Positions 1 to 16,903 of a stretch of 64,000 nt of DNA are shown here, in pieces. The position numbers were made by a program, and so were the translations under genes. How positions within the stretch are numbered: the first letter of the stretch is position 1; every line of letters begins with the position of its first letter. The notes beneath the pieces are model-generated. The model was not told the DNA's origin and ran no database searches. It saw only the letters and a list, made by a program, of their open reading frames with translations. Where the stretch lies: contig CAVURN010000002.1 of the NCBI GenBank assembly GCA_963743915.1, positions 672,001 through 736,000 on the forward strand. Direction: 5' to 3'. The DNA is from an uncultured Actinomycetota bacterium. GTDB taxonomy: Bacteria; Actinomycetota; Actinomycetes; JAHEKZ01.

Positions 1-5
1 CCAGG

Positions 6-1274
6 GTGCACCTACGTTCCCGACTTACCGTTGCGGCCTCGATTCCTGTCCTGATCGGGGCAAGCCTCGTCGTCGCACCCGCTACTGCAGCGCCGCCCAC
101 GCCCCCGCCCAATACCACGGTCGTTACCTGGGACGCCGTCGCCCAGCAGGCGATATCCGCCGTGCCACTGTCTGCACCTGATGGCCATGTGCTCTTCGCG
201 TACGTCGGCATCGCGATGTACGACGCGGCCATGGCGGTCAACCCCACTCACAAGTCCTTCACCACTGACGTTCAGGCCGCCCCCGGAGCGTCCGCTGAAG
301 CAGCCGTGGCCACCGCGGCCCATGACGTCCTCGTCCACTTCCTGCCGGCCCAGGCTGCAACGATCATCGACCCGGCATACGCCAATTCACTTGCCGCCAT
401 TCCGGATGGACCGGCCGAGACCGCAGGAATAGAGGCGGGGGCGGAGGTCACCGAACAGTTGCTGGAGGAACGTGGCGGCGACGGGTTCCTCGCGCCAACG
501 ACACCACCGCCGATCGGCACCGCTCCTGGTGAGTGGATCCCCACCGCGACGACGCCTCCGCTGGGCCTGTCGTTGGTAAACATGCGCCCGTTCACCCTCA
601 AGTCGAATGACCAGTTCCGTCCGGCCGGCCCACCCTCGCTCGACAGCGACCGATGGGCTCGGGACTTCAACGAGACCAAGACCATGGGAGTCGCAAGTGG
701 CGGTCCGCGGGACGAGTATCAGACGCTGGTAGCCCGCTTCTGGGGAGAGCCACCGGTGCCGCAGGCGCATGCGGCACTCCGGCTGTTCGTCCAGCAGCAC
801 GACCTCGACCTTTTCGAGGCAGCCCGCTTCATGGCCATGGCCGACGTGACGGTGGGTGACGCGTTCATCGCCTGCTTCGACGCCAAGTACCACTTCCGGT
901 TCTGGCGCCCGATAACCGCGATTCGTGCCGGTGACAGCGATGGCAACGCTGACACCGCTGGTGATCCGGCGTGGACTCCCCTGCTCGGGACGCCGAACCA
1001 TCCTGAGTACCCGAGCGCCCACTCGTGCATCACGCCTTCGATAGGGCTGGTTGTGGCACGGTTCCTCGGAACGCAGCAGATCGATTTCACCATTCCGAGC
1101 GTCACCGGACTCGGCAGCCGGACGTTTGCTACGCCACGTGCGCTGACCGCGGACGTAGGCAACGGTCGCGTCTGGGCAGGAATCCACTTCCGCAGCGCCA
1201 CCGACGACGGAGCGGTCATCGCCAAGCGGAGTGCCAACTGGGTGCTCGCGCACAACTTCCAGCCGCTCGACTAG
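6..1274 (+). CDS. Secreted vanadium-dependent haloperoxidase / PAP2-superfamily protein
   Basis: N-terminal signal peptide (…APATA-A); vanadate-binding motifs KYHFRFWRP, HPEYPSAH and RVWAGIHF. Confidence 0.85.
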   Translation: MHLRSRLTVAASIPVLIGASLVVAPATAAPPTPPPNTTVVTWDAVAQQAISAVPLSAPDGHVLFAYVGIAMYDAAMAVNPTHKSFTTDVQAAPGASAEAAVATAAHDVLVHFLPAQAATIIDPAYANSLAAIPDGPAETAGIEAGAEVTEQLLEERGGDGFLAPTTPPPIGTAPGEWIPTATTPPLGLSLVNMRPFTLKSNDQFRPAGPPSLDSDRWARDFNETKTMGVASGGPRDEYQTLVARFWGEPPVPQAHAALRLFVQQHDLDLFEAARFMAMADVTVGDAFIACFDAKYHFRFWRPITAIRAGDSDGNADTAGDPAWTPLLGTPNHPEYPSAHSCITPSIGLVVARFLGTQQIDFTIPSVTGLGSRTFATPRALTADVGNGRVWAGIHFRSATDDGAVIAKRSANWVLAHNFQPLD

Positions 1275-1283
1275 TCAGGGCAG

Positions 1284-1319
1284 CGTCCCGGGTCCTCGAG
1301 CAGTCGAGGACCCGGGACG
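1284..1319. terminator. Bidirectional hairpin terminator between convergent genes
   Basis: Perfect 16-bp inverted repeat CGTCCCGGGTCCTCGA-gcag-TCGAGGACCCGGGACG. Confidence 0.75.
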
Positions 1320-1327
1320 TTCGCGAA

Positions 1328-1954
1328 TCACGGGACAGCGACGCGGCACACGACTCCGACACAGGGAGACGTCTCCTCGCCCGCGGGCATCGACTCGTAC
1401 GGGGGCGTGACCTCGACCGGCACGACGACGCCCTCGTGCTCACCTGTGCGCAGGAATTCCTCGACCCCCGACTCCCACACCGTGACCTTGACCGACAGCA
1501 CAATCAGACCACCTGGCCGGACCACCCGGAACAGCTCCGGAAGTCCCTCTACCCCGACATGTCCAGCAGTGAAGACCCCTGTACTCACAGCTGCCGCATA
1601 GCGAGCACTCTCGAAGGGGAGCGGTTCACCGAGGAAACCGTGGTGCAGCTCGCGGTACGCGCGTTTTCGGCTGGCCACCGCCAGCATCCCCTCGGATGCA
1701 TCGAGGGCATCGACCTCGGGATAGCCCACCGTGCCGAGGAGCTCACCCACGAGCCCGGTGCCCGCGCCCGCGTCCAGGATCGGCGCCGACCCCGCGGGCA
1801 GGTGCCGGCACAGCAGGGCCAAGGCGATAGCCGGGTGGCGATACCCGACTTCCGCCATGTCGGAGTCATAGGACGCTGCCCACGCGTCGTACGCGTCCGA
1901 CAGCTCGTCCCTGCTGCTGGCCCCGTAGACCGCCTCCAAGCGCGACTGCGTCAT
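1328..1954 (-). CDS. Class I SAM-dependent methyltransferase
   Basis: Motif I ILDAGAGTG, DASEGML; ATG at 1954 preceded by a GGAGG RBS. Confidence 0.85.
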   Translation of the reverse strand: MTQSRLEAVYGASSRDELSDAYDAWAASYDSDMAEVGYRHPAIALALLCRHLPAGSAPILDAGAGTGLVGELLGTVGYPEVDALDASEGMLAVASRKRAYRELHHGFLGEPLPFESARYAAAVSTGVFTAGHVGVEGLPELFRVVRPGGLIVLSVKVTVWESGVEEFLRTGEHEGVVVPVEVTPPYESMPAGEETSPCVGVVCRVAVP

Positions 1955-2065
1955 CTCGCCTCCTGTGAGATGTGCCCCACCCTCTCGCACGAGGTTCCCA
2001 CCGGGCAATGGTGAGCTCCTACGACGAGGTCTCGACGGACCTCATCAGGGCGACATACTGAGGCG

Positions 2066-2800
2066 ATGACGACATTCTCCGACACGACAGAGTTTGAAGG
2101 CGCGACGTTCATCAAGACCAGCTTCAAGGGCGCCACCATACGGTTCTCCGACGTCGGTGGTCTGACGATGCGCAGCGTCGACGTAGGCGGTCTGGACATC
2201 GACAGCCACGACCTGTTCTTCGGCAGCCTCTACGTCAACGGCGTCGACGTGGTTCCGCTGGTGGACGCCGAGCTCAACCGGCAGTTCCCCGGCCGCGAGC
2301 TGCAGAAGGCCCAGACACCCGAGGGTCTGCGCGAGGGCTGGACAGCCGTGCAGGCCGCGTGGGCCGAGACGGTGCAACAGACACCGCCACACCTGGTCGA
2401 CGCCCACGTCAAGGACGAGTGGTCATTGGCCCAGACCCTGCGACACCTCGTGCTCGCGACCGATGCTTGGCTTCGCGGCGCCATCCTGCGGATGGACGAG
2501 CCCTTCCATGAGATCGGCCAGGTCTTCACCGGCGCCGGGGCGATGGGATTCGACATGAGCATCTTCCGCGTCGACGCACCGTCCTATGACGAGGTTCTGG
2601 CCGTCCGCGCGGAACGTCAGCGAATGGTGACGGACTTTCTGCAGACCGTCACCCCGGATGTACTGGCCGAGGAACGCGACGACCCGTGGGCGGGTGACTG
2701 GCAGCCCACCGTTGGCGACTGTGTTCGGGTGATCTTGGAGGAGGAGTGGGCCCACCTACGCTATGTCCGCCGAGACCTGACCCTGCTCAGCGACACGTGA
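2066..2800 (+). CDS. DinB family protein with N-terminal pentapeptide-like repeats
   Basis: WSLAQTLRHL and EEWAH DinB motifs; FEGAT/FKGAT repeats. Confidence 0.8.
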   Translation: MTTFSDTTEFEGATFIKTSFKGATIRFSDVGGLTMRSVDVGGLDIDSHDLFFGSLYVNGVDVVPLVDAELNRQFPGRELQKAQTPEGLREGWTAVQAAWAETVQQTPPHLVDAHVKDEWSLAQTLRHLVLATDAWLRGAILRMDEPFHEIGQVFTGAGAMGFDMSIFRVDAPSYDEVLAVRAERQRMVTDFLQTVTPDVLAEERDDPWAGDWQPTVGDCVRVILEEEWAHLRYVRRDLTLLSDT

Positions 2801-2891
2801 CGAGCCATCCCCGATCGTCGCCCAATGGCGAAGCCACGTCACCGGACAGCCGGAACCAAACGTCACGCATCAGCCGGGAAATACGCCGCAG

Positions 2892-2966
2892 TGGGGCGGG
2901 TGGGACTCGAACCCACGACCTGACGGATTATGAGTCCGCTGCTCTAACCAGCTGAGCTACCGCCCC
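2892..2966 (-). tRNA. tRNA with CAU anticodon, probably tRNA-Ile2 (lysidine); not the initiator
   Basis: GGGGCGG acceptor stem, anticodon arm GCGGA-CTCATAA-TCCGT, T loop TTCGAGT; a paired G1-C72 excludes fMet. Confidence 0.9.
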
Positions 2967-3037
2967 GGCACATCTTTGGGGAACTTCCTCCGCCCCGTGA
3001 CCCGTGAAAGTTACCCCAAAGGTGTTGGATCAGAGGT

Positions 3038-3730
3038 ATGCGCCTCACCCCGACCGAGCGAGACCGACTCCTCGTCTTCACCGCTGCCGAGCTCGCCCGC
3101 AGTCGCCGTGGTCGCGGCCTCCAGCTCAATGCGCCAGAGGCCACGGCACTCATCGCGGCCACGGTCATCGAAGCGGCTCGCGACGGACAGCGTCTGCGGG
3201 ACGCCGTTGATGCCGGCTGCAATGTGCTCCAGCCGGACGACGTCCTGCCCGGTGTGGCGGCGCTGGTGCCCGAGGTCTGGGTGGAGGCGGTCTTCGACGA
3301 CGGGACGCGCCTGGTCGTCGTTCCTCAGCCCCTCGGTCCGCCCCATGGGGAGGCAGCGCCGGGTTCTCTCGAACCCGCCCAGGACGAGGTCCCCGCGGCC
3401 ACTGCGCCGACCGCGACGCTCGAGGTGCACAACACCTCTGACGTCCCGATCAGCGTCACCTCACACTTCCACTTCTTCGAGGTCAACCCGCGGCTGCGCT
3501 TCGACCGGGCTGCGGCGTACGGCCGGCGTCTGGCAGTGCCGGCCGGCGAGGCCATCAGGTTCGACCCCCACACCACCACCGCTGTTCCCCTGGCGCCGAT
3601 CGGGGGTGAGCGGGTCGTCGTCGGAGCCGCTGGACTGGTCGACGGCCCTCTGGATGCCCCGGGAGCCAAGGAGGCCGCACTCGAGAAGGCACGCGCCACC
3701 GGCTACCTCGACGCCGGGACCGAGTCGTGA
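3038..3730 (+). CDS. ureAB: Fused urease gamma/beta-like subunit
   Basis: MRLTPTERDRL start, VEAVFDDGTRLV (gamma) and SHFHFFEVNPRL…RRLAVPAG (beta). Confidence 0.9.
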   Translation: MRLTPTERDRLLVFTAAELARSRRGRGLQLNAPEATALIAATVIEAARDGQRLRDAVDAGCNVLQPDDVLPGVAALVPEVWVEAVFDDGTRLVVVPQPLGPPHGEAAPGSLEPAQDEVPAATAPTATLEVHNTSDVPISVTSHFHFFEVNPRLRFDRAAAYGRRLAVPAGEAIRFDPHTTTAVPLAPIGGERVVVGAAGLVDGPLDAPGAKEAALEKARATGYLDAGTES

Positions 3731-5404
3731 GGAGCGACGACTACGCCGCGATCTACGGCGCGACGACCGGTGACCGCATCCACCTCGGCGACACCGGACT
3801 GATCATCGAGATCGAATCCGACTCGCAGCTGCACGGCGACGAGTTCCTCATGGGATTTGGCAAGACGGCCCGCGACGGGCTGCACCTTCAGGCGCTGGCC
3901 GCGACGGAGTCCTGCGACGTGGTCGTGTCGAACGTCCTCATCGTGGACGCCGTGCTGGGCGTCCGTAAAGCCTCGATCGGGATCCGCGAGGGGCGCATCA
4001 GTTCCATCGGTCGGGCCGGCAATCCCCACACTCTGGACGGTGTGGACGTCGTCGTCGGCAACGGCACGTCGATCGTGAGCGGAGAAGGTCTGATCGCCAC
4101 AGCGGGGGCGATCGACACCCACGTCCATCTGATGTCGCCCCGCATCATGGAGGCGGCGCTGTCCTCCGGGGTGACCACCATCATCGGTCAGGAGTTCGGC
4201 CCGGTCTGGGGAGTCGGCGTCAACTCACCGTGGGCACTGCGTCACGCGTTTCGAGCCTTCGACGACTGGCCGGTCAACATCGGCTTCCTGGGGCGCGGTT
4301 CGTCGTCGGGAGACTCCCCCCTTCGTGAGGCTCTCGAGCGCGGAGGCGTCTGCGGGTTCAAGGTGCACGAAGACACCGGCGCTCATGCCCGCGCCCTCGA
4401 CACCGCCCTCCGGATAGCCGACGAGTACGACGTCCAGGTGGCCTTGCACACCGACGGCCTCAACGAGAGCCTCTCCGTGACCGACACGCTCGCTGTCCTT
4501 GACGGGCGTACCATCCACGCCTTCCACGTCGAGGGCTGCGGTGGGGGCCATGTTCCAGACGTGCTGCAGCTCGCGGGCGTCCCCAATGTCATCGGCTCGT
4601 CGACCAACCCCACGCTCCCCTACGGACGCGACGCGGTGCACGAGCACCTGGACATGATCATCGCCAGTCATGGGTTGAAGCCCGACCTGCCAGGGGACGT
4701 GCAGATGGCGGCCGACCGCATCCGCGGGGCCACGATGGCGGGTGAGAACGTGCTGCACGACCTCGGGGCGATCCCCATCACCTCCTCGGACGCGCAGGGT
4801 ATGGGACGGGCCGGGTGAGACTTTTGCGCGCACGTTTGCACTCGCCGCGCAGAACAAGCGCGCCCTCGGTCCGATGGCCGGCCACGAGGACGACGGCCAC
4901 GACAACGCGCGGGTCCTGCGGTACCTCGCCAAGCTCACCATCAACCCGGCGATCGCACACGGCTTCAGCCACGAGCTCGGATCGCTCGAGGTCGGAAAGC
5001 TCGCCGACATCGTGCTGTGGGACCCCGCCTGGTTCGGAGCCAAGCCGTCACTGGTGCTGAAAGCCGGGTACCCGGCGTGGGGCGTCACTGGTGACCCCAA
5101 TGCCTCCGTCGATCGAGCCGATCCTCTGGTCTTCGGCCCGCAGTTCGGCGGCCACGGGGCCACGCCTGCCGACCTCTCCGTCGCACTCGTCAGCGAAGCC
5201 TGCGACGTGGCCGGCCTGGGGACCCGCCGCCGGGCAGTTCCCGTCCGAGGATGTCGCCAGGTCGGCCTGGGCGCGATGGTGCGGAACGCCACGACGGGGA
5301 CAACGCGCGTCGATCCCGACGGTGCGCGGGTGACCTTCGACGACCGAGCGCTCACAGCCGATCCGGTCGACTCGGTGAGTCTCAGTCGGCTCTACTTCCT
5401 CTGA
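3727..5404 (+). CDS. ureC: Divergent urease alpha-like subunit (one-base frameshift near 4815, probably a sequence error)
   Basis: DTHVH, FKVHED, HTD, HAFH and SSDAQGMGR metal/catalytic motifs; continues in the 4742..5404 frame with [11 protein letters not shown] and SRLYFL. Confidence 0.85.
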
Positions 5405-5709
5405 CCCGTGAGGGTGTCACTCACAGGCTCGTGTCGTTCGGTGAGGTCGGGGCCCTCGAGGGAAGTGTCGGCGGGTGCCTGCACCTCGTAGCTCGGCATG
5501 GCACCCATCCCCGCCATCGACAGGAGCTTCCCGGCGAAGACACCGAGCGCTGCGACGCCCAAGCCGAGCCAGAAGACCACCGGCTCGGCGGCGACGACCG
5601 CGACCCCTGAGGTCAGGAACCCCACGAGCACGATCGTCACGGTCGTCCAGGCCGCGACGGTGTGTCCGTGGGCGGGACCGCTGTCGTGCCGGGTGGCGTG
5701 ATGGCTCAT
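5392..5709 (-). CDS. HGxxPAAW-like small membrane protein
   Basis: HGHTVAAWT motif followed by two TM helices; ATG at 5709 with purine-rich RBS. Confidence 0.75.
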
Positions 5710-5760
5710 CTCTCTCTCCCAAGGTCGACTGTGGGGCTGCACTGGTCCGATGCCGGTGAC

Positions 5761-5786
5761 ATTCCCCACGGTCCCTCGACCGAAAC
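5761..5786 (-). promoter_or_regulatory. SigB/SigF-type promoter
   Basis: GTTT-N16-GGGAAT on the minus strand, ahead of the HGxxPAAW gene. Confidence 0.5.
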
Positions 5787-5796
5787 CCCGGTGCAT

Positions 5797-5821
5797 GATT
5801 GACGGCAGGGCGAACGGGTAT
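5797..5821 (+). promoter_or_regulatory. SigB/SigF-type promoter
   Basis: GATT-N15-GGGTAT ahead of the ORF at 5858. Confidence 0.5.
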
Positions 5822-5857
5822 GTGTCGGAGAACACCTGATCCTCTGAGGAGGCCCCC

Positions 5858-6109
5858 ATGCAGTACCCATCGGCCACCACGCACGTCGAGATCGAGGCGA
5901 TCGTGGACGGCGTCCGACGTCGTCACGGACGGTGCCGGCCTGCTCACCCTCGCGGAGATCTGCCAGCGAGAGCTCGCACTCCACTCCTCGTGCGCGGCCG
6001 ACCCCCGAGACTGGTCGACAGCGACCGTCCCTGGTGGGCTCCTGACGGCCAGCGAGCGGAGCGGGCAGACGTTTCTCCGCGCGGCCTCCGGGTATTCAGC
6101 CCTCCATGA
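5858..6109 (+). CDS. Small hypothetical protein, probably frameshifted near 5930
   Basis: GAGGAGG RBS and ATG; the helical-looking sequence continues in another frame (AGLLTLAEICQRELAL); true end uncertain. Confidence 0.35.
   Translation: MQYPSATTHVEIEAIVDGVRRRHGRCRPAHPRGDLPARARTPLLVRGRPPRLVDSDRPWWAPDGQRAERADVSPRGLRVFSPP
6071..6095 (+). promoter_or_regulatory. SigB/SigF-type promoter
   Basis: GTTT-N15-GGGTAT ending 10 nt before the ATG at 6106. Confidence 0.65.
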
Positions 6110-6348
6110 CCACCACAGCGCATCGTCTCGTCCGATTCGACGGCGTCAGCTGGGTCGTCGTGGCACCAGGTGCCGAGCGCGTCTCGTTCCGCAGCGATGA
6201 CCGGGGGGAGGCCGTCGCGCGTGCCCGACGCATCGTCCGCAACCTCGGGGGCGGGCAGGTCGAGATATGCGGCGAACACGGAACCGTCGAGCGGGTGGTC
6301 ACGGTGACGCGCTCCCTGGCGCAAGAGCCGGACCTTCGGCCGCGATGA
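6106..6348 (+). CDS. DUF2188-like small protein
   Basis: WVVVAPGAERVS…EAVARARRIVRNLGGGQVEI pattern. Confidence 0.65.
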   Translation: MTTTAHRLVRFDGVSWVVVAPGAERVSFRSDDRGEAVARARRIVRNLGGGQVEICGEHGTVERVVTVTRSLAQEPDLRPR

Positions 6349-6382
6349 GCGGCCCCATCCCTACGTACCTTGAGGAGACGTC

Positions 6383-6910
6383 ATGACCGTTGCTGACCTC
6401 ATCCGGACCGACCACCGCGAGATGGAGCGGCTCTTCTCCGAGCTCGAGAGCCCGGAGAAGCGGCCCCTCGTGGCTCCGACCATCGTCGCGCTGCTCGCCG
6501 CGCACAGCCGGGCCGAGGAGTCTGAGGTCTATCCGGCAGTGCGGGAGCAGACGGACGCGTCCGATGAGGTGGCCCACTCCCAGAAGGAGCACGTCGAGGC
6601 AGACCGGCTCGCCGCGCGCCTCGTCGACACCGACCTCGACAGCGACACCTTCGACCGACTCTTGAAGGAGCTGGTGGACGCCGTCTCCCACCACATCGAG
6701 GAGGAGGAGTCGGACGTGCTGCCCGCTCTCGACAAGCTGCCGGAGCAGGTCCAGGCGACCCTGGGGTCAGCTTTCCTGCGGGTACGCGCGGAGCACCTCA
6801 TGGCCGGAACGACGTCGATGACTCGCAGCGAGCTCGAGACCCAGGCGCGCAACGAAGGCATCGACGGCACCTCCTCCATGAGCAAGAACGAGCTGGCCGA
6901 CAAGGTCTGA
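6383..6910 (+). CDS. Hemerythrin (HHE) domain protein with C-terminal Rho-N/HeH-like tail
   Basis: DH, HSRAEE, EH and HHIEEEE motifs; tail MTRSELETQARNEGIDGTSSMSKNEL. Confidence 0.85.
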   Translation: MTVADLIRTDHREMERLFSELESPEKRPLVAPTIVALLAAHSRAEESEVYPAVREQTDASDEVAHSQKEHVEADRLAARLVDTDLDSDTFDRLLKELVDAVSHHIEEEESDVLPALDKLPEQVQATLGSAFLRVRAEHLMAGTTSMTRSELETQARNEGIDGTSSMSKNELADKV

Positions 6911-6921
6911 GCCTGACGGTC

Positions 6922-6945
6922 GTTTCACCCGACGACCACCGGGTA
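6922..6945 (+). promoter_or_regulatory. SigB/SigF-type promoter
   Basis: GTTT-N15-GGGTA ahead of the SRPBCC gene. Confidence 0.65.
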
Positions 6946-6975
6946 GTCGCGACGTACCATCGAAGGGAGAAACAG

Positions 6976-7422
6976 ATGACCACCATCGAGCAGGCCGTCG
7001 ACGTCCGTGCCCCGTTGCAGCGGGTCTACAACCAATGGACGCAGTTCGAGGACTTCCCCCAGTTCATGGAGGGTGTCGAGAGCGTTCAACAGCTCGACGA
7101 CAGCCACCTGCACTGGCGCACCAGCATCGCCGGCGTCACGCGTGAGTTCGACGCCCGCGTCGTCGAGCAGGAGCCCGACCAGATCATCGCCTGGCAGAGC
7201 CTCGACCAGCCGCACCAGGCCGGCCGGGTCACCTTCCAGCCGCTCGACACCGCCACGACGCGGGTCGGGCTCCGGATGGACTTCGAGCCTGAGGGACTTG
7301 CGGAAAAGACAGGCGACAAGCTCGGCATCGTCGAGGCGCGCGTGCGAGGTGACCTCGAGCGGTTCAAGCACTTCATCGAGGAGCGAGGCACCGAGACCGG
7401 TGCCTGGCGAGGCACCGTCTGA
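6976..7422 (+). CDS. SRPBCC / cyclase-dehydrase family protein
   Basis: VYNQWTQFEDFPQFMEGV and ETGAWRG signatures. Confidence 0.9.
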   Translation: MTTIEQAVDVRAPLQRVYNQWTQFEDFPQFMEGVESVQQLDDSHLHWRTSIAGVTREFDARVVEQEPDQIIAWQSLDQPHQAGRVTFQPLDTATTRVGLRMDFEPEGLAEKTGDKLGIVEARVRGDLERFKHFIEERGTETGAWRGTV

Positions 7423-7431
7423 GCTGCGGCT

Positions 7432-7472
7432 GATGGGCCGGTCCGGGGCGTTCGCTCCTGGACCGGCCCATC
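7432..7472. terminator. Hairpin terminator between convergent genes
   Basis: Inverted repeat GATGGGCCGGTCC…GGACCGGCCCATC. Confidence 0.7.
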
Positions 7473-7473
7473 G

Positions 7474-7944
7474 TCATGCCGGACCCTCGCTGCGCAGTCG
7501 AGAGGGCCAGACGAACCAAAGGCCGATGAAGAGCACCATCGCTCCCGCCCCTGCGACGAACGAGAAGGGCCGCCCGATGCTCACGTCCAGGGCGAGGAAC
7601 ACCGCACCTGTCATCGATGCGGCCAGGAAGAGGAGACCGGTCGACGCCATGAGATGGGCGGACCTGATGACCTCCTCCTTCATGTGGTGCCCGAACAGCA
7701 TGCGGTGCAGGGCAACAGGAGCGATCATCAGGGCTGCAGCGACCAGCGCGGACAGCAGCGAGAACGCGTACACGCTCTTCAGCGTGGTGGACAGCCCGGC
7801 AAAGCCGCCCTGGAACGGCAGCACGAGCAGGAAGGCGAAGAGGATCTGAACTCCGGCCTGCGCCACTCGAAGCTCTTGCAGGAGCTCGCTCAGCTGACGG
7901 TCGGCACGCTCGTCCGGGGTCTCGGACGGGCGTGAGGAGCTCAC
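7474..7944 (-). CDS. DUF6328-like membrane protein
   Basis: ELLQELRVAQAGVQILFAFLL signature; four TM segments. Confidence 0.8.
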   Translation of the reverse strand: MSSSRPSETPDERADRQLSELLQELRVAQAGVQILFAFLLVLPFQGGFAGLSTTLKSVYAFSLLSALVAAALMIAPVALHRMLFGHHMKEEVIRSAHLMASTGLLFLAASMTGAVFLALDVSIGRPFSFVAGAGAMVLFIGLWFVWPSRLRSEGPA

Positions 7945-7945
7945 C

Positions 7946-8812
7946 TCAGCCGGTGCCGGTCATCGTCGCCGCGATGTCCGAGCTCGAGTCACCACCGCGT
8001 CGCAGGACCAGACCGACGAGCCCGATGGCGATGATGGTCAGCAAGAACATGAGTGCCGAGATCGAGGCGATCTCCGGACGCAGTGACGCCTTGACGGAGG
8101 AGAAGACGTAGACCGGCCAGGGTGTGCTTCCCTGCACGAAGACGAACGACGAGATGACCGTGTTGTCCAGGCTGAGAGTGAAGGCGAGCAATCCACCGGC
8201 CAGCACCGCAGGGAGCATCAGCGGGAAGGTGATCTGGCTGAACCGCTTGAAGGGGGTCGCATAGAGGTCGCCGGCTGCCTCCTCGAGGGACTCGTCGATG
8301 CCGGAGAGCCGAGCGCGGACGATCAGTGTGACGACGGCGGTGCTGAAGACCGAGTGACTGACGATCAGGCGCACGTAGCCGCTGTTGAAGGCGAGGATGT
8401 TGAAGTCCTGGCCCAGCAGCACGTACCACGGCAGCAGGGCGATCGCGTCCACGATCTCCGGGGTCACGAGGACCAGCGCCACCAGGATGAGGAACCCGGC
8501 CGTCCACTTGCCAGGCCTCCTGGCCAGCGCGACACCCGCCAGGGATCCGAGGAAGGTCGCGATCAACGCGGAGAGGACGGCCACGATCAGGGAGACCCGC
8601 ACGGCTGCTCGAGGTGCGGGGTTCTCGAAGAACGCCCGGTAGCCGTCGAGACCGAAACCATTCCAGTCGGTGAGGATGCGTCCGGTGTTGAACGAGTAGA
8701 CCAGGATCCAGACGATCGGCAGGAAGAGGAAGATGAAGACCACGACGCCCCAGACCGTGAGCCCGACCTTGGGCCAGTCGAAGCGGGTCTTGGTGACCGT
8801 CGCGCCGCTCAT
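7946..8812 (-). CDS. Polyamine-type ABC permease (PotC-like)
   Basis: ATG at 8812; EEAAGDLYA EAA loop; FTLSLDN. Confidence 0.85.
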   Translation of the reverse strand: MSGATVTKTRFDWPKVGLTVWGVVVFIFLFLPIVWILVYSFNTGRILTDWNGFGLDGYRAFFENPAPRAAVRVSLIVAVLSALIATFLGSLAGVALARRPGKWTAGFLILVALVLVTPEIVDAIALLPWYVLLGQDFNILAFNSGYVRLIVSHSVFSTAVVTLIVRARLSGIDESLEEAAGDLYATPFKRFSQITFPLMLPAVLAGGLLAFTLSLDNTVISSFVFVQGSTPWPVYVFSSVKASLRPEIASISALMFLLTIIAIGLVGLVLRRGGDSSSDIAATMTGTG

Positions 8813-9790
8813 GCGTCCGCTCCCGCCGGGAGGGTGATGCGCCGACGTGGCACGGAGCGCTGCACGGATGAGCAGACCCAGGATGGCGAAGACGATCAGC
8901 GCGGCGAGAATGAACCCGATCATGATCACCGCCATGGCTGCGCCACGTGACCAGTTGAAGGTGTTGAGGAACTGCTCGGCCACGAGCACACCGGCCATGC
9001 TTCCCTTCGCGCCTCCGAGCAGCTGCGGGGTGATGTAGTCACCCATCAACGGGATGAACACCAACAACATGCCGGCGATGGCCCCTGGCATGGCCAGTGG
9101 CAGTGTCACCTGGAGGAAAGTCTTCACCTTGTTGGCGCCCAGGTCTTTGCTCGCCTCGCGGAGCGCCGGATCGATCCGCTCGAACGCCACGTAGAGCGGC
9201 AGGATCATCAGCGGCAGGTAGTTGTAGACGACACCGATCTGGACGCCGGTCTGGGTGTAGAGGAGCGCAAGCGGCGAGTTGGTGATCCCGAAGTCCTGCA
9301 GCTTGTCCGAGACGACGCCGTTGGGCGCGAGGATCAGCTGCCAGCCGATGGTCCGGACCAGGAAGTTCGTCCAGAACGGCACCAGGACGAGGCCGAGCAG
9401 GAAGCCTCGCCAGCGCGGGCTGACCTTGGTCGCCAGCCAGTAGGAGAAGGGCAGCGAGACGATCAGGCAGATGAAGGTGCCGGTGATGGCGATGCGGAGC
9501 GTCCGCCAGAAGATGGGGGTATAGGCGGGGTCGAAGGCCTCGCTGAAGTTGTTCAGCGACCACACGGACGGGCTGACGTCGGGCTTCTGGATGAAGGTGC
9601 TGACCTGCTCGCCGAGGCTGTAGAGCAGCACAAGACCGACCGGCAGCGCGAAGAACAGGATGAACCACGTCCACGCCGGCAGGGCCAGCAGGAACTTGGG
9701 CGAGCGCCATCGCCGCTTGGCCCGTGGGGCGCTCGAGGTGCCGGGAGCTGCCGAACCGGTGTCGGCAGTCTCCTGCGTGTCCGTGGTCAT
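8809..9790 (-). CDS. Polyamine-type ABC permease (PotB-like); apparent fusion to the next permease is due to a 1-nt indel
   Basis: PFWTNFLVR, YLPLMILPLY and REASKDLGA; a TGA overlaps the PotC-like ATG (ATGA) one base out of frame. Confidence 0.8.
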
Positions 9791-9797
9791 CGAGCCG

Positions 9798-10973
9798 TCA
9801 GCCGCCGGCCGCCGACTTGAACTTGTTGTAGATCTCGACGCGACGGTCCTGCGCGGCGTTGAGCTCGCCCGACTCCATGGTGGCGACCTGCTCCTCGGTG
9901 AAGAACACGATGTCGAGGCGCTCGATCCCGGCCTCCTCCGCCAGCGGCTGGATGTCCTTCACCCCCGTGTGGTAGCCGATGTACTCGAGCTCCAGCAGCG
10001 ACACCTCTGGCTGCAGCAGGTAGTCCATCCACGCGTAGGCGGCGTTGGGGTGCGGCGCACCGACCGGGATGGCGTAGGTGTCCATCCAGATCTCGGTACG
10101 TGGTGTGGGGAGCACCCACTTCCACTGGTCGGGGTCGTCGGCGCCGAGGATCCCCTGGCGAGCGTCCCCGTTCCACGCGTGCACCAAGGCGAAGTTGCCG
10201 TTCTGCATGTCGCCACCACCGGGGTACGACACGAACGCCTTGACATGCGGAGCCAGCTCATTGAGCAGGAACTCTTCGCAGGCGTCCAGCTCGGCGGTGT
10301 CCTCGGTCATCCAGTTGAGGTCGTTGGCCCAGAGCCAGAGCCCGACCACGTTGTCGGGGCTGTCGAGGATCGAGAAGTTGCCGCTGGCGTCGGTCATCGC
10401 AACATCGATGAAGTCCTGCCAAGTCGCCATCTCACGGTCGATCTTGGTGGTGTCGTACGCATACCCGGTCGTGCCCCAGTCCTTGCAGATGGAGTACTTG
10501 TTGCCCGGGTCCCACGGCTGGTCCTTGTACTGCTCCTCGAGGTTGCCGAAGTTCTTCAGTCGGCTCAGGTCGAGCTCCTGCACCAGCTCGTTCTCGACCA
10601 ACGCAGGAATGAACGGACCGGTCGGGACGATGAGGTCGTAGCCGGACGTTCCCTGTGCCGCGCTCAGCTTCGCGATCAGCTGCTCGTTGGAGTTGTACGA
10701 GTCGAGGGTGAACTTCAGGTCGTTCGCGGTCTCGAACGACTTGATCACCTTCGGGGCGTTGTACTCGCCCCAGGTGAACATGTTCAGCTCACTCTCGATC
10801 TCGCCGGCGGGCGCCGCCTGGGTGTCCGGAGTGGACTCTTCTCCACACGCCGCGAGCAGCGCCGAGCCGCCCACCGCGGCACCGGCGGCGCCGCCCATGA
10901 AGAGTCGACGGGAGATGCGCTGGGCTGCCTCCGGCGGGGCGAGAATCTTGATCGGTTCGTTCAGGTCACTCAT
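9798..10973 (-). CDS. Spermidine/putrescine-type substrate-binding lipoprotein (Tat signal)
   Basis: SRRLF twin-arginine motif plus LAAC lipobox; FTWGEY, YDLIVPT, WGTTG, WNGD. Confidence 0.88.
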   Translation of the reverse strand: MSDLNEPIKILAPPEAAQRISRRLFMGGAAGAAVGGSALLAACGEESTPDTQAAPAGEIESELNMFTWGEYNAPKVIKSFETANDLKFTLDSYNSNEQLIAKLSAAQGTSGYDLIVPTGPFIPALVENELVQELDLSRLKNFGNLEEQYKDQPWDPGNKYSICKDWGTTGYAYDTTKIDREMATWQDFIDVAMTDASGNFSILDSPDNVVGLWLWANDLNWMTEDTAELDACEEFLLNELAPHVKAFVSYPGGGDMQNGNFALVHAWNGDARQGILGADDPDQWKWVLPTPRTEIWMDTYAIPVGAPHPNAAYAWMDYLLQPEVSLLELEYIGYHTGVKDIQPLAEEAGIERLDIVFFTEEQVATMESGELNAAQDRRVEIYNKFKSAAGG

Positions 10974-10998
10974 GTGCTTCCTTATCTCTCGTCCCGGC

Positions 10999-12156
10999 TC
11001 AGTTGCCGGCCAGCACTTCTGCTTTGTCGGACGCCGGGTCGGCCAGTACGAGGTCGGCCTGATCGGCGGTGAACAGGTACGTGTGGTCGGCGTTCCACGA
11101 GCACCAGACCGACTGTCCCGTCTCCAGACGGGGCGCCCGGGTCCTCGGGAGGCGAGCCAGGATCTCCCGGCCCTCCCCGGCGGACACCACGAACTGGATG
11201 ACGTCGCCGAGGTGCGAGATGCCGGCCAGCTCGCCGCGGAGCACGTTCACCGTGGCGCCCGGATCGGTCTCACTGACCGTGATCGCCTCGGGGCGGACGG
11301 CAGCCAGCGCCGCAGAGCCCACCGTGAGCGAGTCCGCCGGTCGGCTCGAGGTCAGCGTCGCGCCGTCTGACTTGATGGACGCGCCCCCCTCGAGGGCCCG
11401 GCCGCGGAAGAAGTTCTGCTGGCCGATGAATCCCGCCACGAAGGCTGACGAGGGGTGCTCGTAGATCGTGTAGGGGTCACCGAGCTGCTCGATGCGGCCG
11501 TCGAGCATGACCGCGATGCGGTCACTCATCGACAGGGCTTCTTCCTGGTCGTGCGTGACGAAGATGAAGGTGATGCCCAGCTGGGACTGCAGCAGCTTCA
11601 GCTCGATCTGCATCTCTTCGCGCAGCTTGCGGTCAAGGGCGCCGAGCGGTTCGTCGAGAAGCAGCAGGCTCGGTCGGTTGACGAGTGCTCGCGCCAGCGC
11701 GACTCGCTGCTGCTGTCCACCGGAGAGCTGCTTCGGCTTGCGCTCGGCCAGCGGGCGCATCTTGACCATGTCGAGAGCCTCGGCCACCCGCTGGCCCATG
11801 TCGGCCTTGCCGACACCGCGCTGACGCAGCCCGTAGGCCACGTTCTCGGCCACGGTCATGTGCGGGAAGAGGGCATAGGCCTGGAAGACGGTGTTCACGT
11901 CACGCTTGTGGGGCGGCGTCCCGGCGATGGGCTGGCCCGAGATGCGCATCTCACCGGAGGTCGGTTCCTCGAAGCCGGCGAGCATCCGCAGCGTGGTGGT
12001 CTTGCCGCACCCACTCGGTCCGAGCAGGGAGATGAACTCACCCGGCTGGACGCTGAGATTCATCGTGTCGACAGCGGTGAAGTCGCCGAACTTCTTGACG
12101 ACGTCGATGAGCTCGACGGCTCCCGTCACCTCGCTGGAGCGAACTGCTTCTGTCAC
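10999..12156 (-). CDS. Polyamine-type ABC ATPase (PotA-like)
   Basis: [15 protein letters not shown] and LLDEP motifs; TOBE-like C-terminus. Confidence 0.9.
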
Positions 12157-12274
12157 TCCTCGCTACCTCCTCGAGTCGTGCCACGGGTGCTGTTCGCCAT
12201 CGACCACAGTCAACCGCATGCTGGCGGCATCCAATCAGACGCCCGACGTCCACGGGCAGCATTGCGACCTATTC

Positions 12275-12290
12275 GTGACCTCCGTGTCAC
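12275..12290. promoter_or_regulatory. GTNAC-N6-GTNAC candidate operator (GlnR/MtrA-like)
   Basis: GTGAC-CTCCGT-GTCAC upstream of the ABC ATPase. Confidence 0.35.
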
Positions 12291-12300
12291 TCTCCGTGGC

Positions 12301-13943
12301 CTACCGACGGAAGACCACCGATCCTGATGCCACGGTCAGGTCCACCGCAGGCGTCCGCGATGGTGCCCTCGGGGAGCGCGAAGATGTCCCGGTCGAGCAC
12401 CGCCAGGTCGGCCCGCATGCCCGGCTCGAGGCGGCCGGCGTCCTCGTCGTGGTTCACGTGGGCGGTACCTGAGGTGAAGGCGGTCAGCGCCACCTCCAGC
12501 GACACCCGCTCCTCCGGGAGGAAGGCCGGCGCGTCCGGCGTCAGAGTGGCCGCGCCGGTTGACCATCACGTCGATCTCCTCGAGCGGGTTCGCAGACGTC
12601 ACCGACCAGTCGCTTCCTCCGGCCAGCTGCGCCCCGGACCGCAGCAGCGACCCGAACGGATACATGAGCTCCACGCGCTCGCGCCCGAGGAACGGGACCG
12701 TCAGCTCCTCCATCTGGGGGTCGCTCTGGGCCCACAGCGGCTGGCAGTTGGCGATCACGCCCAGCTCGGCGAAGCGCGGGATGTCGTCCGGCTGCACGAT
12801 CTGGATGTGTGCGATGTGGTGGCGATGGTCGCTCATGCCATTGGCCGCCCGGGCCGCACCGACCGCATCGAGTGCATTCCGCACCGCGCGGTCACCGATC
12901 GCGTGCATGTGCACCTGGAACCCGAGACGGTCGAGCTCGGTGACGGCGGCTCCGAGCAGGTCTGGCTCGACGTAGCTGAGTCCGTGGTTGTCGGTGTGGC
13001 CGCCGCAGCCGTCGCAGTAGGGCTCGAGGAGCGCTCCGGTGTAGTTCTCGAGGACGCCGTCGGTCATGATCTTCACGCTCGTCGCGTGGAAGTTGCCGAT
13101 CACGCCGCTCTCCCGTTGTTCCTGGAACTGCGGGATCTGGTCGAGGCCCTGGTGGCGGTCCCACCACAGGGCTCCGGTCACCCGCGCGGTCAGGCCACCG
13201 TTCTCGGCCAGGGACCGGTAGGCGGCGTGCGTCCCGGGGGTCACCCAGGCGTCCTGCCAGGCGGTGATCCCGAGCGCGTGCAGGTGCTCCTGCGCGTTCA
13301 GGATCGCCGCCTCCCACTCGGCGCGTCCCGGCGTCGGGACCAGCGTGTCGTTGAAGGTGTAGGCCGCACCCTCGTGGAGCATGCCCGTCGGCTCGCCCGT
13401 CTCGGGGTCGCGCTCGATCCGTCCGTCGGACGGGTCCGGCGTGTCCTTCGTGATTCCCGCTCGCTCGAGCGCGACCGAGTTCACCCAGGCTCCGTGCACG
13501 TCCTTGTTGAACAGGAAGACCGGACGGTCCGGGACGATGGCGTCGAGGTCCTCCTTGCGCGGCAGTCCTCCGGGGAAGCACTCCATCGCCCAGCCGCCCC
13601 CGACGACCCACGGCTCATCGGGGTTCGCACGGGCGTAGGCGGCGATCGCCTCGAGGTAGTCCGAGCGGCCCTGCAGATCGTTCAGCCAGACCCGCAACCG
13701 GTTGCGTCCTGCAAAAGGTGCGTGGACGTGCGCGTCCTGGAAACCGGGGACAGCAAGCCGGCCCGGCAGGGAGAGCACCTCGGTGCCCGGGCCACGCAGG
13801 TCCGACAGCTCGCCGGGCTCGCGCCCCACGGCGAGGATCCGACCGTCCTTGAGGGCGATCTCTCGTCCGCGCGACCCGGACGCGTCGTTCGTGTACACGG
13901 TGAGGTCGGTGAGCAGCAGGTCAGCGGTGGGTGTCGACGGCAT
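12301..13943 (-). CDS. Amidohydrolase 3 family (YtcJ/NfdA-like), with two frameshifts near the 3' end
   Basis: PGFQDAHVH, HAIGD, HIAH and GSDW motifs; C-terminus (LEPGMRADLAVLD; VDLTVASG) lies in shifted frames near 12550 and 12345. Confidence 0.85.
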
Positions 13944-14011
13944 GCGAGGCATCTTTGACTGCCCGGGCCGTCGGAGCAAGTGACCGGGGCGGCGCTCCGT
14001 ACCGTGGACCC

Positions 14012-14596
14012 ATGGAGGAGCCGAAGCTGGCGGATCGGGGAGACGCAGGGCGCCTCGCCCGCACCTTCGCCCGGGCCATGCTGCACGACCCGATGATCCG
14101 CTGGCCGCTCCTGGGTGACGTGGACGTCGGACGGCTCGAGCACATGACGGGCCCTCTGGTCGACATGTACCTCGAGGTCTCGGCCGCCTGGCTTCTGCAG
14201 AGCGGGACGGCGATGGCCGCTTGGATCCCCCCGGATGCGGCCTCACGCTTCGAGGCTCTGGAGCAGCCCACCCGGCGAGCCATCGCTCCGTGGACCGGGG
14301 ACGACGGCGTCCGCTACGGGCGCTTCTGGGACTGGTTGGCGGCGCACATCCCCGATGAGCCCGCGTGGTTCCTCGACCTGGTCGCCGTCGACCCGAGCGT
14401 GCAGGGACGTGGCCTCGGCACTCGGCTGATCCGGCACGGTCTCGAGCTTGCTCGCGGCACGTCGCTGCCGGCGTTCCTCGAGACCGGCCAGGAGCGCAAC
14501 GTGAGCCTCTACGAGCGGTTCGGCTTCCATGTCGTCGCGCGCGAGTCGGCTCCCGATGGCGGGCCAACGATCTGGTTCATGAGCACAGACCCCTGA
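14012..14596 (+). CDS. GNAT N-acetyltransferase
   Basis: VAVDPSVQGRGLG acetyl-CoA motif; NVSLYERFGF. Confidence 0.85.
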   Translation: MEEPKLADRGDAGRLARTFARAMLHDPMIRWPLLGDVDVGRLEHMTGPLVDMYLEVSAAWLLQSGTAMAAWIPPDAASRFEALEQPTRRAIAPWTGDDGVRYGRFWDWLAAHIPDEPAWFLDLVAVDPSVQGRGLGTRLIRHGLELARGTSLPAFLETGQERNVSLYERFGFHVVARESAPDGGPTIWFMSTDP

Positions 14597-14638
14597 GCGC
14601 AGCGTGAGCGCACCACCGCCTCTCCTAGGATCGGCCCT

Positions 14639-15961
14639 GTGACGGACTTCGCCCCCGCCGACTACTCCCTGACGGCGTCGCCGGGACGCACACTGCCGGT
14701 GGCGGTGCGGGCCAAGGGCATGCGCATCTGGGACCGCGACGGGCAGGAGTGGCTGGACGCGTGCGGCGGTGCCATGGTGATGAGCCTCGGGCACTGTCAC
14801 CCGCGTCTGGTCGAGGCGGCACAGAGGCAGCTGGAGAAGATCACCTTCACCTACCGCTTCTCCTTCTCGAACGAGCCCATGATCGAGCTGGCTGCGCTGA
14901 TCCGTGAGATCGCGCCCATGGAGCGGGGCTGGGCCTTCTTCAACTCGTCCGGCTCGGAGTCGATCGAGTCGGCCATTCATCTCGCCCTCCTGTACTGGCA
15001 GCACCAGGGACGCACCGGCAAGACCGAGCTCATCTCGCGCTACCCCAGCTTCCACGGCTCGACCCTCGGTGCCCTCGGTCTGTCCGGCTCCCGTTGGCGA
15101 CAGGCCTTCGACCATGTGCTCGAGGACAACCCCGTCGCCGAGGCGCCGAACGCCGACATCCGGTCCGGCCGCACAGCCGACGAAGAGCTGACCTTCGGGC
15201 TGCGGCAGATCGAGGACGCCTTGGTCGCCCGCGGGCCCGAGAACGTGGCCGCGGTGTTCCTCGAGCCGATCTCGGGTGCCAGCACCGCCGCCGTCGTGCC
15301 ACCGGAGGGCTACCTCGAAGGCGTCCGCGCCCTCTGCGACCGGTACGACGTGCTGATGATCTGCGACGAGACCGTCACCAGCTTCGGCCGCACCGGCACG
15401 TGGTGGGCCGTCGACCACTGGAACGTCACGCCCGACATCGTCACGTTCGCCAAGGGGGTGAGCAGCGGTGTCGTCCCCTTCTCGGGGTTGGCGATCGCCG
15501 GACGGGTCGCGGATGTCTTCGCCGCCGCACCGGAGGGATTCCCCTTCGGCCACACGTACTCAGGCAACCCGGTCGGCTGCGCGGTCGCGTCCGAGGTCAT
15601 CCGGGTCATCCGCGACGACGGGCTGCTCGAGCACAGCACGGTGATGGGTGAGCGCCTGAGGCAGGGCCTGCTGGAGATCGCGGACGCCTCGCCACATGTC
15701 GGCCAGGTGCGGGGACGCGGCCTGCTGCAGGGCGTCGAGCTGGTGACCGACAAAGGTTCCCTGACTCCATTGGCGGGCGCCGCGTCTCGGTTGACCGGCC
15801 TCGCCCACGACCGGAACCTGATGATCTACAGCTGCCCCACCCCGCTTCATGACACGGTGATCGAGGCGGTGATGCTCGCGCCTCCGCTGAACCTCGACGA
15901 AGCTGACGTCGACGAGATCGTCAACCGCTTCGGCGACGCGGTGGCCGGACTCGCCCTCTGA
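14639..15961 (+). CDS. Class III PLP-dependent aminotransferase
   Basis: SGSES, FHG, EPI, DETVTSFGRTG, PLP lysine in TFAKG, GHTY. Confidence 0.9.
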   Translation: MTDFAPADYSLTASPGRTLPVAVRAKGMRIWDRDGQEWLDACGGAMVMSLGHCHPRLVEAAQRQLEKITFTYRFSFSNEPMIELAALIREIAPMERGWAFFNSSGSESIESAIHLALLYWQHQGRTGKTELISRYPSFHGSTLGALGLSGSRWRQAFDHVLEDNPVAEAPNADIRSGRTADEELTFGLRQIEDALVARGPENVAAVFLEPISGASTAAVVPPEGYLEGVRALCDRYDVLMICDETVTSFGRTGTWWAVDHWNVTPDIVTFAKGVSSGVVPFSGLAIAGRVADVFAAAPEGFPFGHTYSGNPVGCAVASEVIRVIRDDGLLEHSTVMGERLRQGLLEIADASPHVGQVRGRGLLQGVELVTDKGSLTPLAGAASRLTGLAHDRNLMIYSCPTPLHDTVIEAVMLAPPLNLDEADVDEIVNRFGDAVAGLAL

Positions 15962-15967
15962 GCCGGT

Positions 15968-16903
15968 TCAGGGCGTGAGCACGATCTTTCCCCCGGCTTC
16001 GCCGGAGTCGAGCAGTCGGTGCGCCTCGGCAGCTTCCTCGAGCGGCAGACGGTGCGTGACGTGTGTGCGCAGGCGTCCGGTGCCGTAGAGGTCGGCCAGC
16101 TCTCGGGTGCGATCGCCGTCGTCGCGGATGAGAACCCCGTGGAAGGTCTGGTTGGCGTCGATCATCTGGTCGACGTCGAGCTCGGGGGTGGCGATCGCCA
16201 CGATCAATCCGTCATCGCGAAGGTGTGGCTGCACCTGGCGGATCATGGGTCCCCCCACCAGGTCGGCGACCGCGTCGAAGGAACCGCCGGCGATCTCAGC
16301 AGCCCTGTCCATGGCGTCGGGACGGGTGTAGTCGACGCAGCCGATCGCCCCGAGGTCGTGCATCACCGCGTGGCTCCGCTGCCGTCCGACTCCCACCACC
16401 CGCAGGCCGGCGGCCGCTGCCAGCTGCACGAGGAACAGCCCCACGCCTCCACTGGCACCCAGGACGAGCACCGACGACCCGGCCGGATGCAGACGATCGA
16501 GCACTTCCAGCGCCGTCCCGGCCGCCAGCGGGATGGACGCCGCGTCGACCAGGTCGACGCTCTCGGGCAACGCTGCGACCAGGGTCGTGTCCACCACCAC
16601 GTACTCGGCGTAGCCGCCCTGCCCTCGGGGGAACGCCGTCATCGCCATCACCGGCTGTCCCCGCTGCAGCTCGTCGACCCCGTCTCCGAGAGAGTGCACC
16701 CGCCCGGCCACGTCGTACCCGAGCACGCAGGGAGCGGTAAGGCCGGCCCACGACGGATCCACACGGTTGAAGGTGTCGACGGGGTTGACGCCCGCACCCG
16801 CCACCGCGATCAGTACCCGTCCAGGGCCGGGGTCGGGGGTGGGCACCTCACGCACCCGCATCCCCTCCGGGCTCCCGAACTGCTCGACGACCACGGCTCT
16901 CAT
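15968..16903 (-). CDS. NADPH:quinone oxidoreductase-like MDR protein
   Basis: GVNPVD, LGYDVAG, GASGGVG and GKIVL motifs. Confidence 0.85.
   Translation of the reverse strand: MRAVVVEQFGSPEGMRVREVPTPDPGPGRVLIAVAGAGVNPVDTFNRVDPSWAGLTAPCVLGYDVAGRVHSLGDGVDELQRGQPVMAMTAFPRGQGGYAEYVVVDTTLVAALPESVDLVDAASIPLAAGTALEVLDRLHPAGSSVLVLGASGGVGLFLVQLAAAAGLRVVGVGRQRSHAVMHDLGAIGCVDYTRPDAMDRAAEIAGGSFDAVADLVGGPMIRQVQPHLRDDGLIVAIATPELDVDQMIDANQTFHGVLIRDDGDRTRELADLYGTGRLRTHVTHRLPLEEAAEAHRLLDSGEAGGKIVLTP

Follow-up and report, generated by a model that had tools for sequence, protein, structure and literature searches.

A urease-fold enzyme encoded without UreDEFG in actinomycetes, and a possible shift of its substrate from urea to N-carbamoyl-amines

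The locus discussed here lies in a stretch of 64,000 nucleotides (the window) from an uncultured Actinomycetota bacterium (GenBank assembly GCA_963743915.1, contig CAVURN010000002.1, positions 672,001 to 736,000 of the forward strand). It consists of two genes, ureAB and ureC, which code for a fused gamma/beta subunit and an alpha subunit of urease type. The locus very probably belongs to a clade of actinomycete enzymes that are encoded by ure(AB)C genes only and are independent of the urease helper proteins. The alpha subunit has the urease fold, all metal ligands and the catalytic residues of ureases, and a substrate loop that is four residues short. That this helper-free clade hydrolyses an N-carbamoyl-amine and not free urea is our reading of the whole, and a tentative one. 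The features of the locus, in window coordinates, are as follows.

3038..3730, + strand: ureAB, fused urease gamma/beta subunit, 230 amino acids (PF00547 at residues 1-98, PF00699 at residues 121-203; NF009671)
3727..4818, + strand: ureC, first part, 363 codons, Urease_alpha N-terminal domain and most of the TIM barrel (PF00449, PF01979)
4817..5404, + strand: ureC, last part, 195 codons, +1 frame, open to the natural stop (NF009686)
4120..4128, + strand: HxH metal ligands H132 and H134 (sequence reading and alignment column check)
4186..4233, + strand: remodelled substrate loop of 16 residues after the HxH motif (alignment to Yersinia urease chain 6yl3_C and to representatives)
4360..4374, + strand: KVHED, with K212 (equivalent to the carbamylated Lys), H214 and D216 (alignment columns)
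4654..4677, + strand: flap motif MIIASHGL, in which S314 replaces Cys, H315 is kept and G316 replaces the second His (alignment)
4789..4791, + strand: D355, the last metal ligand, in SSD (alignment column check)
4813..4815, + strand: frame break, a GGG run with one extra G (DNA alignment with relatives)

The ureAB product matches NF009671, 'bifunctional urease subunit gamma/beta', at 308 bits (cut-off 243), so that the fusion of gamma and beta seen in a preliminary description of this DNA is supported by that score as well as by the Pfam domains. The GTG start codon of ureC overlaps the ureAB stop by four nucleotides (GTGA, 3727-3730), and its first part ends at TGA 4816-4818, a stop created by the frame break. 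The two ureC pieces match positions 7-370 (500 bits) and 371-568 (195 bits) of NF009686, and all the urease domains (PF00547, PF00699, PF00449 and PF01979 of Pfam) are detected in the window proteins. As far as the sequence goes, the split costs the frame alone, and the residues are all present.

A clade of ure(AB)C genes and its accessory genes

The proteins closest to the window alpha subunit are annotated as 'urease subunit alpha' in uncultured Actinomycetes; they have 557-558 amino acids and are 83-95% identical to it. The next matches, at 78-80% over the window's first 363 residues, come from Thermobispora ('urease subunit alpha 2'), Streptomyces, Kitasatospora and Microbispora. Across a sample of 301 Actinomycetes genomes, identity to the window alpha is bimodal, at least 63% in 44 genomes and at most 54% in 85. 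The clade is present in 44 of the 301; in the largest genus sampled, which we take to be Streptomyces, 15 of the 20 genomes have it. Within the window's own order it is found in 19 of 20 genomes, at 76-88% identity; the twentieth genome is 69% complete.

All four intact clade members that were scored against TIGR01792, the urease equivalog model, stay under its cut-off of 680 bits (628-647), and the window ureC pieces score 433.5 and 173.9 bits. Two of three control ureases with a long substrate loop reach 966 and 981 bits; the third, P0150, scores 642, matching over its first 396 residues only. Among the NCBIfam models, the clade passes the subfamily-level one, NF009686, and not the equivalog. 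A maximum-likelihood tree of 20 ligand-complete sequences, unrooted and with sampling biased towards the query, unites the four long-loop rows in one clade (support 100/98) and leaves the 16 short-loop rows across that branch; the window's clade is supported at 96/96, with protein P0121 as its sister at 92/90. By its identities and by the tree, the window alpha groups with this clade. Other short-loop alpha subunits (P0121, P0122, P0124-P0126, P0130, P0131, P0133, P0134 and P0136) resemble the window protein in their full ligand set and shortened loop, and are 45-61% identical to its clade. In the short-loop type f37/g41 more of the loop is deleted (P0136, which resembles it, shows 11 gap columns); this type comes without UreG and stands beside an open reading frame (ORF) of about 341 amino acids that is deiminase-like by motif only.

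Among the 50% representatives there are also many full-length urease-alpha-like proteins in which most or all of the metal ligands are lost (P0145, P0161, P0163, P0165, P0172, P0174, P0175, P0177, P0179, P0206, P0209, P0246 and P0264). To judge by their sequences, these look like non-catalytic relatives of urease.

The genome to which the window belongs amounts to 2.9 Mb in five contigs, is 90% complete and has one alpha gene. No UreD, UreF or UreG was found in the whole of it, so that the earlier remark that no ureD/E/F/G lies near the locus was correct and, indeed, understated the case. UreG and UreF over cut-off are each found in 0 of the order's 20 genomes. The same association holds in the class sample of 301 genomes, where the relatives counted, here and in the tabulations below, are not independent: UreG occurs in none of the 28 genomes that have this clade only, in 16 of 16 that have both types of alpha subunit, and in 66 of 69 that have the other type only. 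The helper-free pattern covers more than ten families. Maturation without UreDFG, suggested at the outset as maturation without dedicated chaperones, is therefore strongly supported at the level of gene content, with UreG tracking the other alpha types and not this clade. All 16 'both' genomes retain the clade gene beside a second alpha type and UreG, which argues that the clade enzyme is not redundant.

The three other-type genomes that have no UreG (G149, G099 and G133) carry a further alpha type, at loci L126, L127 and L128, with a still shorter loop, TTLITAGFEEPP, and the flap AVHGG. At two of these three loci there is an ORF of about 341 amino acids upstream on the other strand, deiminase-like by motif match only.

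In one genome of the largest genus, G160, the other ureC (G160:C1:447856-448932, 46% identical) has an in-frame TAG, and UreG was not found. The same genome retains a gene of the ure(AB)C type together with its deiminase neighbour; this looks like a standard urease in decay while the paralogue stays.

The existence of the clade is already in print. According to a 2008 paper (PMC2492869), clusters in S. coelicolor and S. avermitilis 'consist of only ure(AB)C genes', and a 2012 paper (PMC3293853) names SCO5525-5526 only in a list of genes unaffected by ArgR. The function of the clade is not in print: no functional study of it was found in the openly accessible papers searched, locus tags included. 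The Streptomyces cluster (SCO5525-SCO5526, SAV2715) is like the window in having a fused gamma/beta gene, an alpha gene and no accessory genes. The Streptomyces 'urease subunit alpha' proteins that are 78-80% identical to the window protein presumably correspond to SCO5525. What differs is the company the genes keep: in Streptomyces ureC is followed by an agmatine-deiminase-like gene, and a TetR gene and an NCS1 permease are frequent there as well, whereas the window has a YtcJ-type amidohydrolase and a Pot importer.

Active site and candidate substrates

All six metal ligands are present in the window alpha subunit: H132 and H134, K212 (in FKVHED), H241 (HTD), H267 (HAFH) and D355 (SSD). The ligand columns of the alignment read HHKHHD in clade members, and the window shows the same residues, which confirms that the ligands are kept, as the preliminary description had read them. 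The catalytic set is kept as well, in the form of H214, D216, H315 and R333; the catalytic His, Asp, flap His and Arg presumably correspond to positions 219, 221, 320 and 336 in the numbering of the K. aerogenes enzyme.

The flap reads M(L/I)MVCH(H/N)L in the long-loop ureases and MIIASHGL in the window protein. A remodelled flap had been proposed from the start, and the replacement of its Cys and the loss of the second His both stand. The first His, H315, which we take to be the catalytic one, is retained, and the position of the Cys varies inside the clade, where it is occupied by S, C or A (SCH in the Thermobispora protein).

The substrate loop has a deletion of four residues relative to the GGGxGPxxGTNxTTxTPGPW of solved long-loop ureases, and no fewer than 107 of 120 close homologues share the loop motif of the window alpha. 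A second stretch, KFGGGKVIRDG in long-loop ureases, is replaced by a different stretch of 12 residues. Both changes had been noticed from the sequence alone (the former as an altered GGGTGP..GT.ATT loop), and alignment to solved ureases and representatives bears them out. A backbone carbonyl of this loop contacts urea in the structures of the K. aerogenes and S. pasteurii enzymes.

The canonical nickel urease, in which UreABC is accompanied by UreDEFG (as in Klebsiella aerogenes, Sporosarcina pasteurii and Yersinia enterocolitica, 6YL3/4Z42), has the same three domains, the same ligands and the same set of His, Asp, flap His and Arg, and is about 50% identical to the window alpha (E 1e-159). 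It differs in its separate gamma and beta subunits, its loop longer by four residues, its CH(H/N) flap, and in reaching the TIGR01792 cut-off; alpha types on the canonical side come with UreG in our sample (66 of 69 and 16 of 16).

The protein is very probably a urease-fold amidohydrolase with a dimetal centre on a carbamylated lysine, assembled without UreD, UreE, UreF or UreG. Its fold, ligands, catalytic residues and loop deletion, its independence from UreDFG and its gene neighbourhoods are shown by the comparisons made here, whereas the substrate, the role of the loop and the metal are inferred. The substrate may be not free urea but a mono-substituted urea, for example N-carbamoylputrescine or a similar N-carbamoyl-amine, in which the terminal nitrogen of the carbamoyl group would be hydrolysed. 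The chemistry would be that of ureases: the carbonyl oxygen would bind to metal 1, the bridging hydroxide would attack, and the leaving NH3 would be protonated by the flap residue His315. With four residues deleted, the loop at 4186-4233 could leave room for the substituent. The ureido compound would be supplied by a partner C-N hydrolase, working on a nitrogen-rich amine that the cell imports; this partner may be an agmatine-deiminase-like enzyme in most genera, and in the window's order a YtcJ-type amidohydrolase with a Pot-type importer. We tentatively favour hydrolysis of an N-carbamoyl-amine over hydrolysis of plain urea. Going further, an enzyme of urease fold may have exchanged urea for N-carbamoyl-amines as its substrate and build its dimetal centre without UreDEFG, perhaps around a metal that is not nickel; this fuller proposal is put forward somewhat more guardedly still.

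The link to deiminases comes from gene neighbourhoods outside the window's order. Of 80 loci taken from named genomes, 46 have a gene of the PAD_porph family (agmatine deiminase family) directly 3' of ureC: 41 in Streptomyces, and the others in Actinocrinis, Kitasatospora, Kineosporia, Nonomuraea and one metagenome-assembled genome (MAG). By a hand tally of coordinates, PAD_porph is at most 5 kb from ureC in 25 of the 31 clade-bearing genomes outside the order, which represent seven families. In the class sample PAD_porph occurs in 41 of 44 clade-bearing genomes and in 27 of the 257 others. A YtcJ-type gene is near ureC in 11 of the 80 loci, in seven MAGs of the window's order, Sphaerimonospora, two Nonomuraea and Pedococcus; at the Pedococcus locus it is accompanied by an APC permease.

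The reaction proposed here is the one known for AguB, the N-carbamoylputrescine amidohydrolase of the nitrilase superfamily (TIGR03381), which catalyses the second step after agmatine deiminase. AguB has the CN_hydrolase fold and a Cys-Glu-Lys mechanism, and the window protein has the urease fold, so that the two would be functional analogues at most. The AguB equivalog over cut-off is found in none of the order's 20 genomes and in none of the 301 of the class sample.

Several observations weigh against an N-carbamoyl-amine substrate. The tabulations across genomes overstate the case, because relatives are not independent. The PAD_porph genes beside ureC score 295-320 bits in three of three tested, from three genera, under the agmatine deiminase equivalog cut-off of 381.8, so these partners are not proven agmatine deiminases. 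An AguB-like nitrilase (218-336 bits) is present in 77 of the 301 genomes, including 20 of 20 in the largest genus, where the gap left by AguB is therefore not firm. In the window's order PAD_porph is present in 20 of 20 genomes, and in the 13 of these that are also in the class sample it lies away from ureC. The window's own genome has an agmatine deiminase operon elsewhere (L111, G000:C3:290001-306000, at 7242-10971 on the - strand), in which a putrescine-carbamoyltransferase-like gene (TIGR04384, 452 bits, cut-off 500) and an APC antiporter accompany the agmatine deiminase (TIGR03380, 565 bits); through this operon, N-carbamoylputrescine is already accounted for in this genome. Plain urea would be released by its two agmatinases, both of which pass the equivalog cut-off of 174 bits (238 and 186), and neither urea carboxylase nor a second urease was found in it. 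The residues that perform the chemistry on urea are all present in the window protein. Finally, the loop stays the same while partner enzymes and transporters differ from one context to the next, as would suit a single small substrate common to all, such as urea.

An argument from a 'pathway hole' was considered for this genome and is weakened: its true AguA has a carbamoyltransferase partner of its own. The larger ureido substrate of the preliminary description, N-carbamoylputrescine in particular, thus gains from deiminase adjacency outside the order (25 of 31 genomes; 46 of 80 loci) and is weaker in this genome, with its carbamoyltransferase operon and two agmatinases.

The locus may instead encode a true urease (EC 3.5.1.5) whose self-activation needs no UreDEFG, by unaided insertion of nickel or by use of another metal. 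Such an enzyme might have a nickel-sparing or housekeeping role, and dispose of urea from the cell's own agmatinases or from the neighbouring hydrolase. We regard this as a serious possibility, if a less probable one than action on N-carbamoyl-amines. The retained ligands and catalytic residues speak for it, as do the best solved matches, which are active ureases (E 1e-159 to 1e-142), the two agmatinases in a genome where urea carboxylase and a second urease were not found, and the identity of the pocket loop across differing gene contexts. There is precedent, too: B. subtilis UreABC and the iron urease of H. mustelae function without accessory genes. The latter, UreA2B2 (PDB 3QGA), is a sequence match to the window alpha (chain 3qga_C, 'Urease subunit beta 2', E 4.5e-146) and is the second urease in a genome with a standard one, much as the clade is in the 'both' genomes. 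We take it to be an iron enzyme of the Helicobacter urease lineage, active without accessory proteins and still hydrolysing urea. As for the metal, a Ni-superoxide dismutase is present in the window's genome (150 bits; L125, G000:C1:526749-527111), so the cell handles nickel, and a NicO-type nickel transporter was not found in this genome; on these two grounds nickel use is neither excluded nor indicated. Against a self-activating urease stand the loop short of four residues, a loop that in ureases carries a backbone carbonyl in contact with urea; the scores under the urease equivalog cut-off in all four clade members; the usual neighbour, of the deiminase family, whose known products are substituted ureas and not urea; and the retention of the clade gene in all 16 genomes that also have another alpha type with UreG. 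UrtA of the urea importer was not found in this genome either.

The substrate could instead be some other small amide or ureide (methylurea, biuret, formamide or the product of a YtcJ-type enzyme) that has nothing to do with polyamine or agmatine metabolism. The contexts do vary by genus, from an NCS1 permease with a deiminase, through an APC permease with a YtcJ-type gene, to a Pot ABC importer with a YtcJ-type gene, and the partner enzymes score under equivalog cut-offs. Nothing indicates a specific alternative, however, and the deiminase link is the sole pattern that runs across many families; we consider this explanation quite improbable.

Reading frame of ureC

Relatives read GCC GGY GAG at the site of the break, against GCC GGG TGA in the window. 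The extra base is missing from the DNA of 11 out of 11 relatives, and one metagenome contig, 93% alike, spans the site without it. If the extra G were real, the protein would stop after residue 363 and the enzyme would be dead in this strain, as the preliminary description had feared. The assembly itself reads GCC GGG TGA, and the window gene is the sole broken copy among the alpha genes of the order's 19 clade-bearing genomes, where 18 are open frames of at least 557 amino acids and a contig end truncates the one in G001. The unpublished genome G033 was used for this tally alone, and none of the claims depends on it.

The 195 codons downstream of the break run uninterrupted as far as the natural stop, and their match to the profile is gapless from one end to the other of this part. 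The first 363 amino acids are 95% identical to the intact 558-residue protein P0002, and the last 195 are 86% identical to its residues 364-558. The ratio of divergence between the last and first parts of ureC, 1.3-2.7, is within the range between intact proteins (1.3-3.7). Similar breaks appear in other genes of the assembly: when 28 ORFs of relatives (11,315 amino acids) were compared with this genome, six frame junctions were seen in five genes, two of the six in the neighbouring amidohydrolase gene. The control for this count is imperfect, since other few-contig genomes of the order also give 0-3 junctions per comparison, and some junctions are true gene boundaries, as between PotB and PotC.

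A sequence error is the likelier explanation, given relatives without the base, a downstream part that has not decayed and the similar breaks elsewhere in the assembly. It is not proven: none of the sequencing runs compared shared more than half of the sampled words, no RNA data set was among the matches listed, and read set X1 has pieces identical to 3038-3623 and none over 4776-4854. On these sequence comparisons, we think it probable that ureC is intact in this genome and the frame break an error, and unlikely that the gene is truly broken in this strain.

Gene neighbourhood and significance

Further downstream in the window, on the opposite strand, are the genes of a putative import and hydrolysis operon.

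7946..9790, - strand: Pot-type ABC permease, a single ORF of 614 amino acids that combines PotB and PotC (PF00528, two stretches)
9798..10973, - strand: PotD/PotF-like substrate-binding protein (PF13416; NF007048 at 120 bits, cut-off 582)
10999..12156, - strand: PotA-like ABC ATPase (PF00005 and TOBE_2; the G016 orthologue scores 383 bits with TIGR01187, cut-off 355.6)
12304..13955, - strand: YtcJ-type (Amidohydro_3) amidohydrolase, which heads the Pot operon (PF07969, 233 bits)

In the window the Pot genes lie 2.5 kb and the amidohydrolase 6.9 kb downstream of ureC. Five small ORFs stand between, coding for DUF6704, an unnamed protein of 80 amino acids, hemerythrin, SRPBCC and DUF6328. A class-III aminotransferase is found on the + strand beyond the YtcJ-type gene. 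In five of five relatives (G006, G003, G019, G016 and G017) the string amidohydrolase-PotA-PotD-PotB-PotC is convergent with ureC, tail to tail, and in G016 about 20 bases separate ureC from the Pot string.

The YtcJ-type gene of the window has two frame changes near its 3' end (at about 12540 and 12349) relative to the intact orthologue of 558 amino acids in G006, which tblastn places on the window in three pieces and three frames; G016 has an intact orthologue of 557 amino acids. One frame junction in the YtcJ-type gene is seen in G003, too. PotB and PotC are two overlapping genes in G006 (324 and 292 amino acids), and the 614-residue ORF of the window is either a true fusion or an indel.

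On the other side of the locus, a tRNA-Met (CAT) is encoded on the opposite strand (2891-2966, -), 71 bases upstream of ureAB. It is the only Rfam match at gathering scores in positions 1-17000 of the window, with no riboswitch before ureAB, and a scan of 2700-6000 for promoters and terminators found none.

Annotation pipelines name the proteins of this clade 'urease subunit alpha'. If their substrate is not urea, inferences of urea use in soils and lakes that are based on ureC would be inflated, and a large number of the 'ureC' genes tallied in metagenomes from soil and freshwater would not report urea use; by the same token, a step in the recycling of guanidino and polyamine nitrogen would be without an assigned gene. 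If N-carbamoyl-amines are indeed the substrates, the clade would provide actinomycetes with a third, non-homologous finish of the agmatine/guanidino-deiminase route, beside the nitrilase-type AguB and putrescine carbamoyltransferase. The 28 or more genomes that have a urease-type carbamylated dimetal centre and lack UreDFG offer a natural system in which to ask what the real role of these chaperones is.

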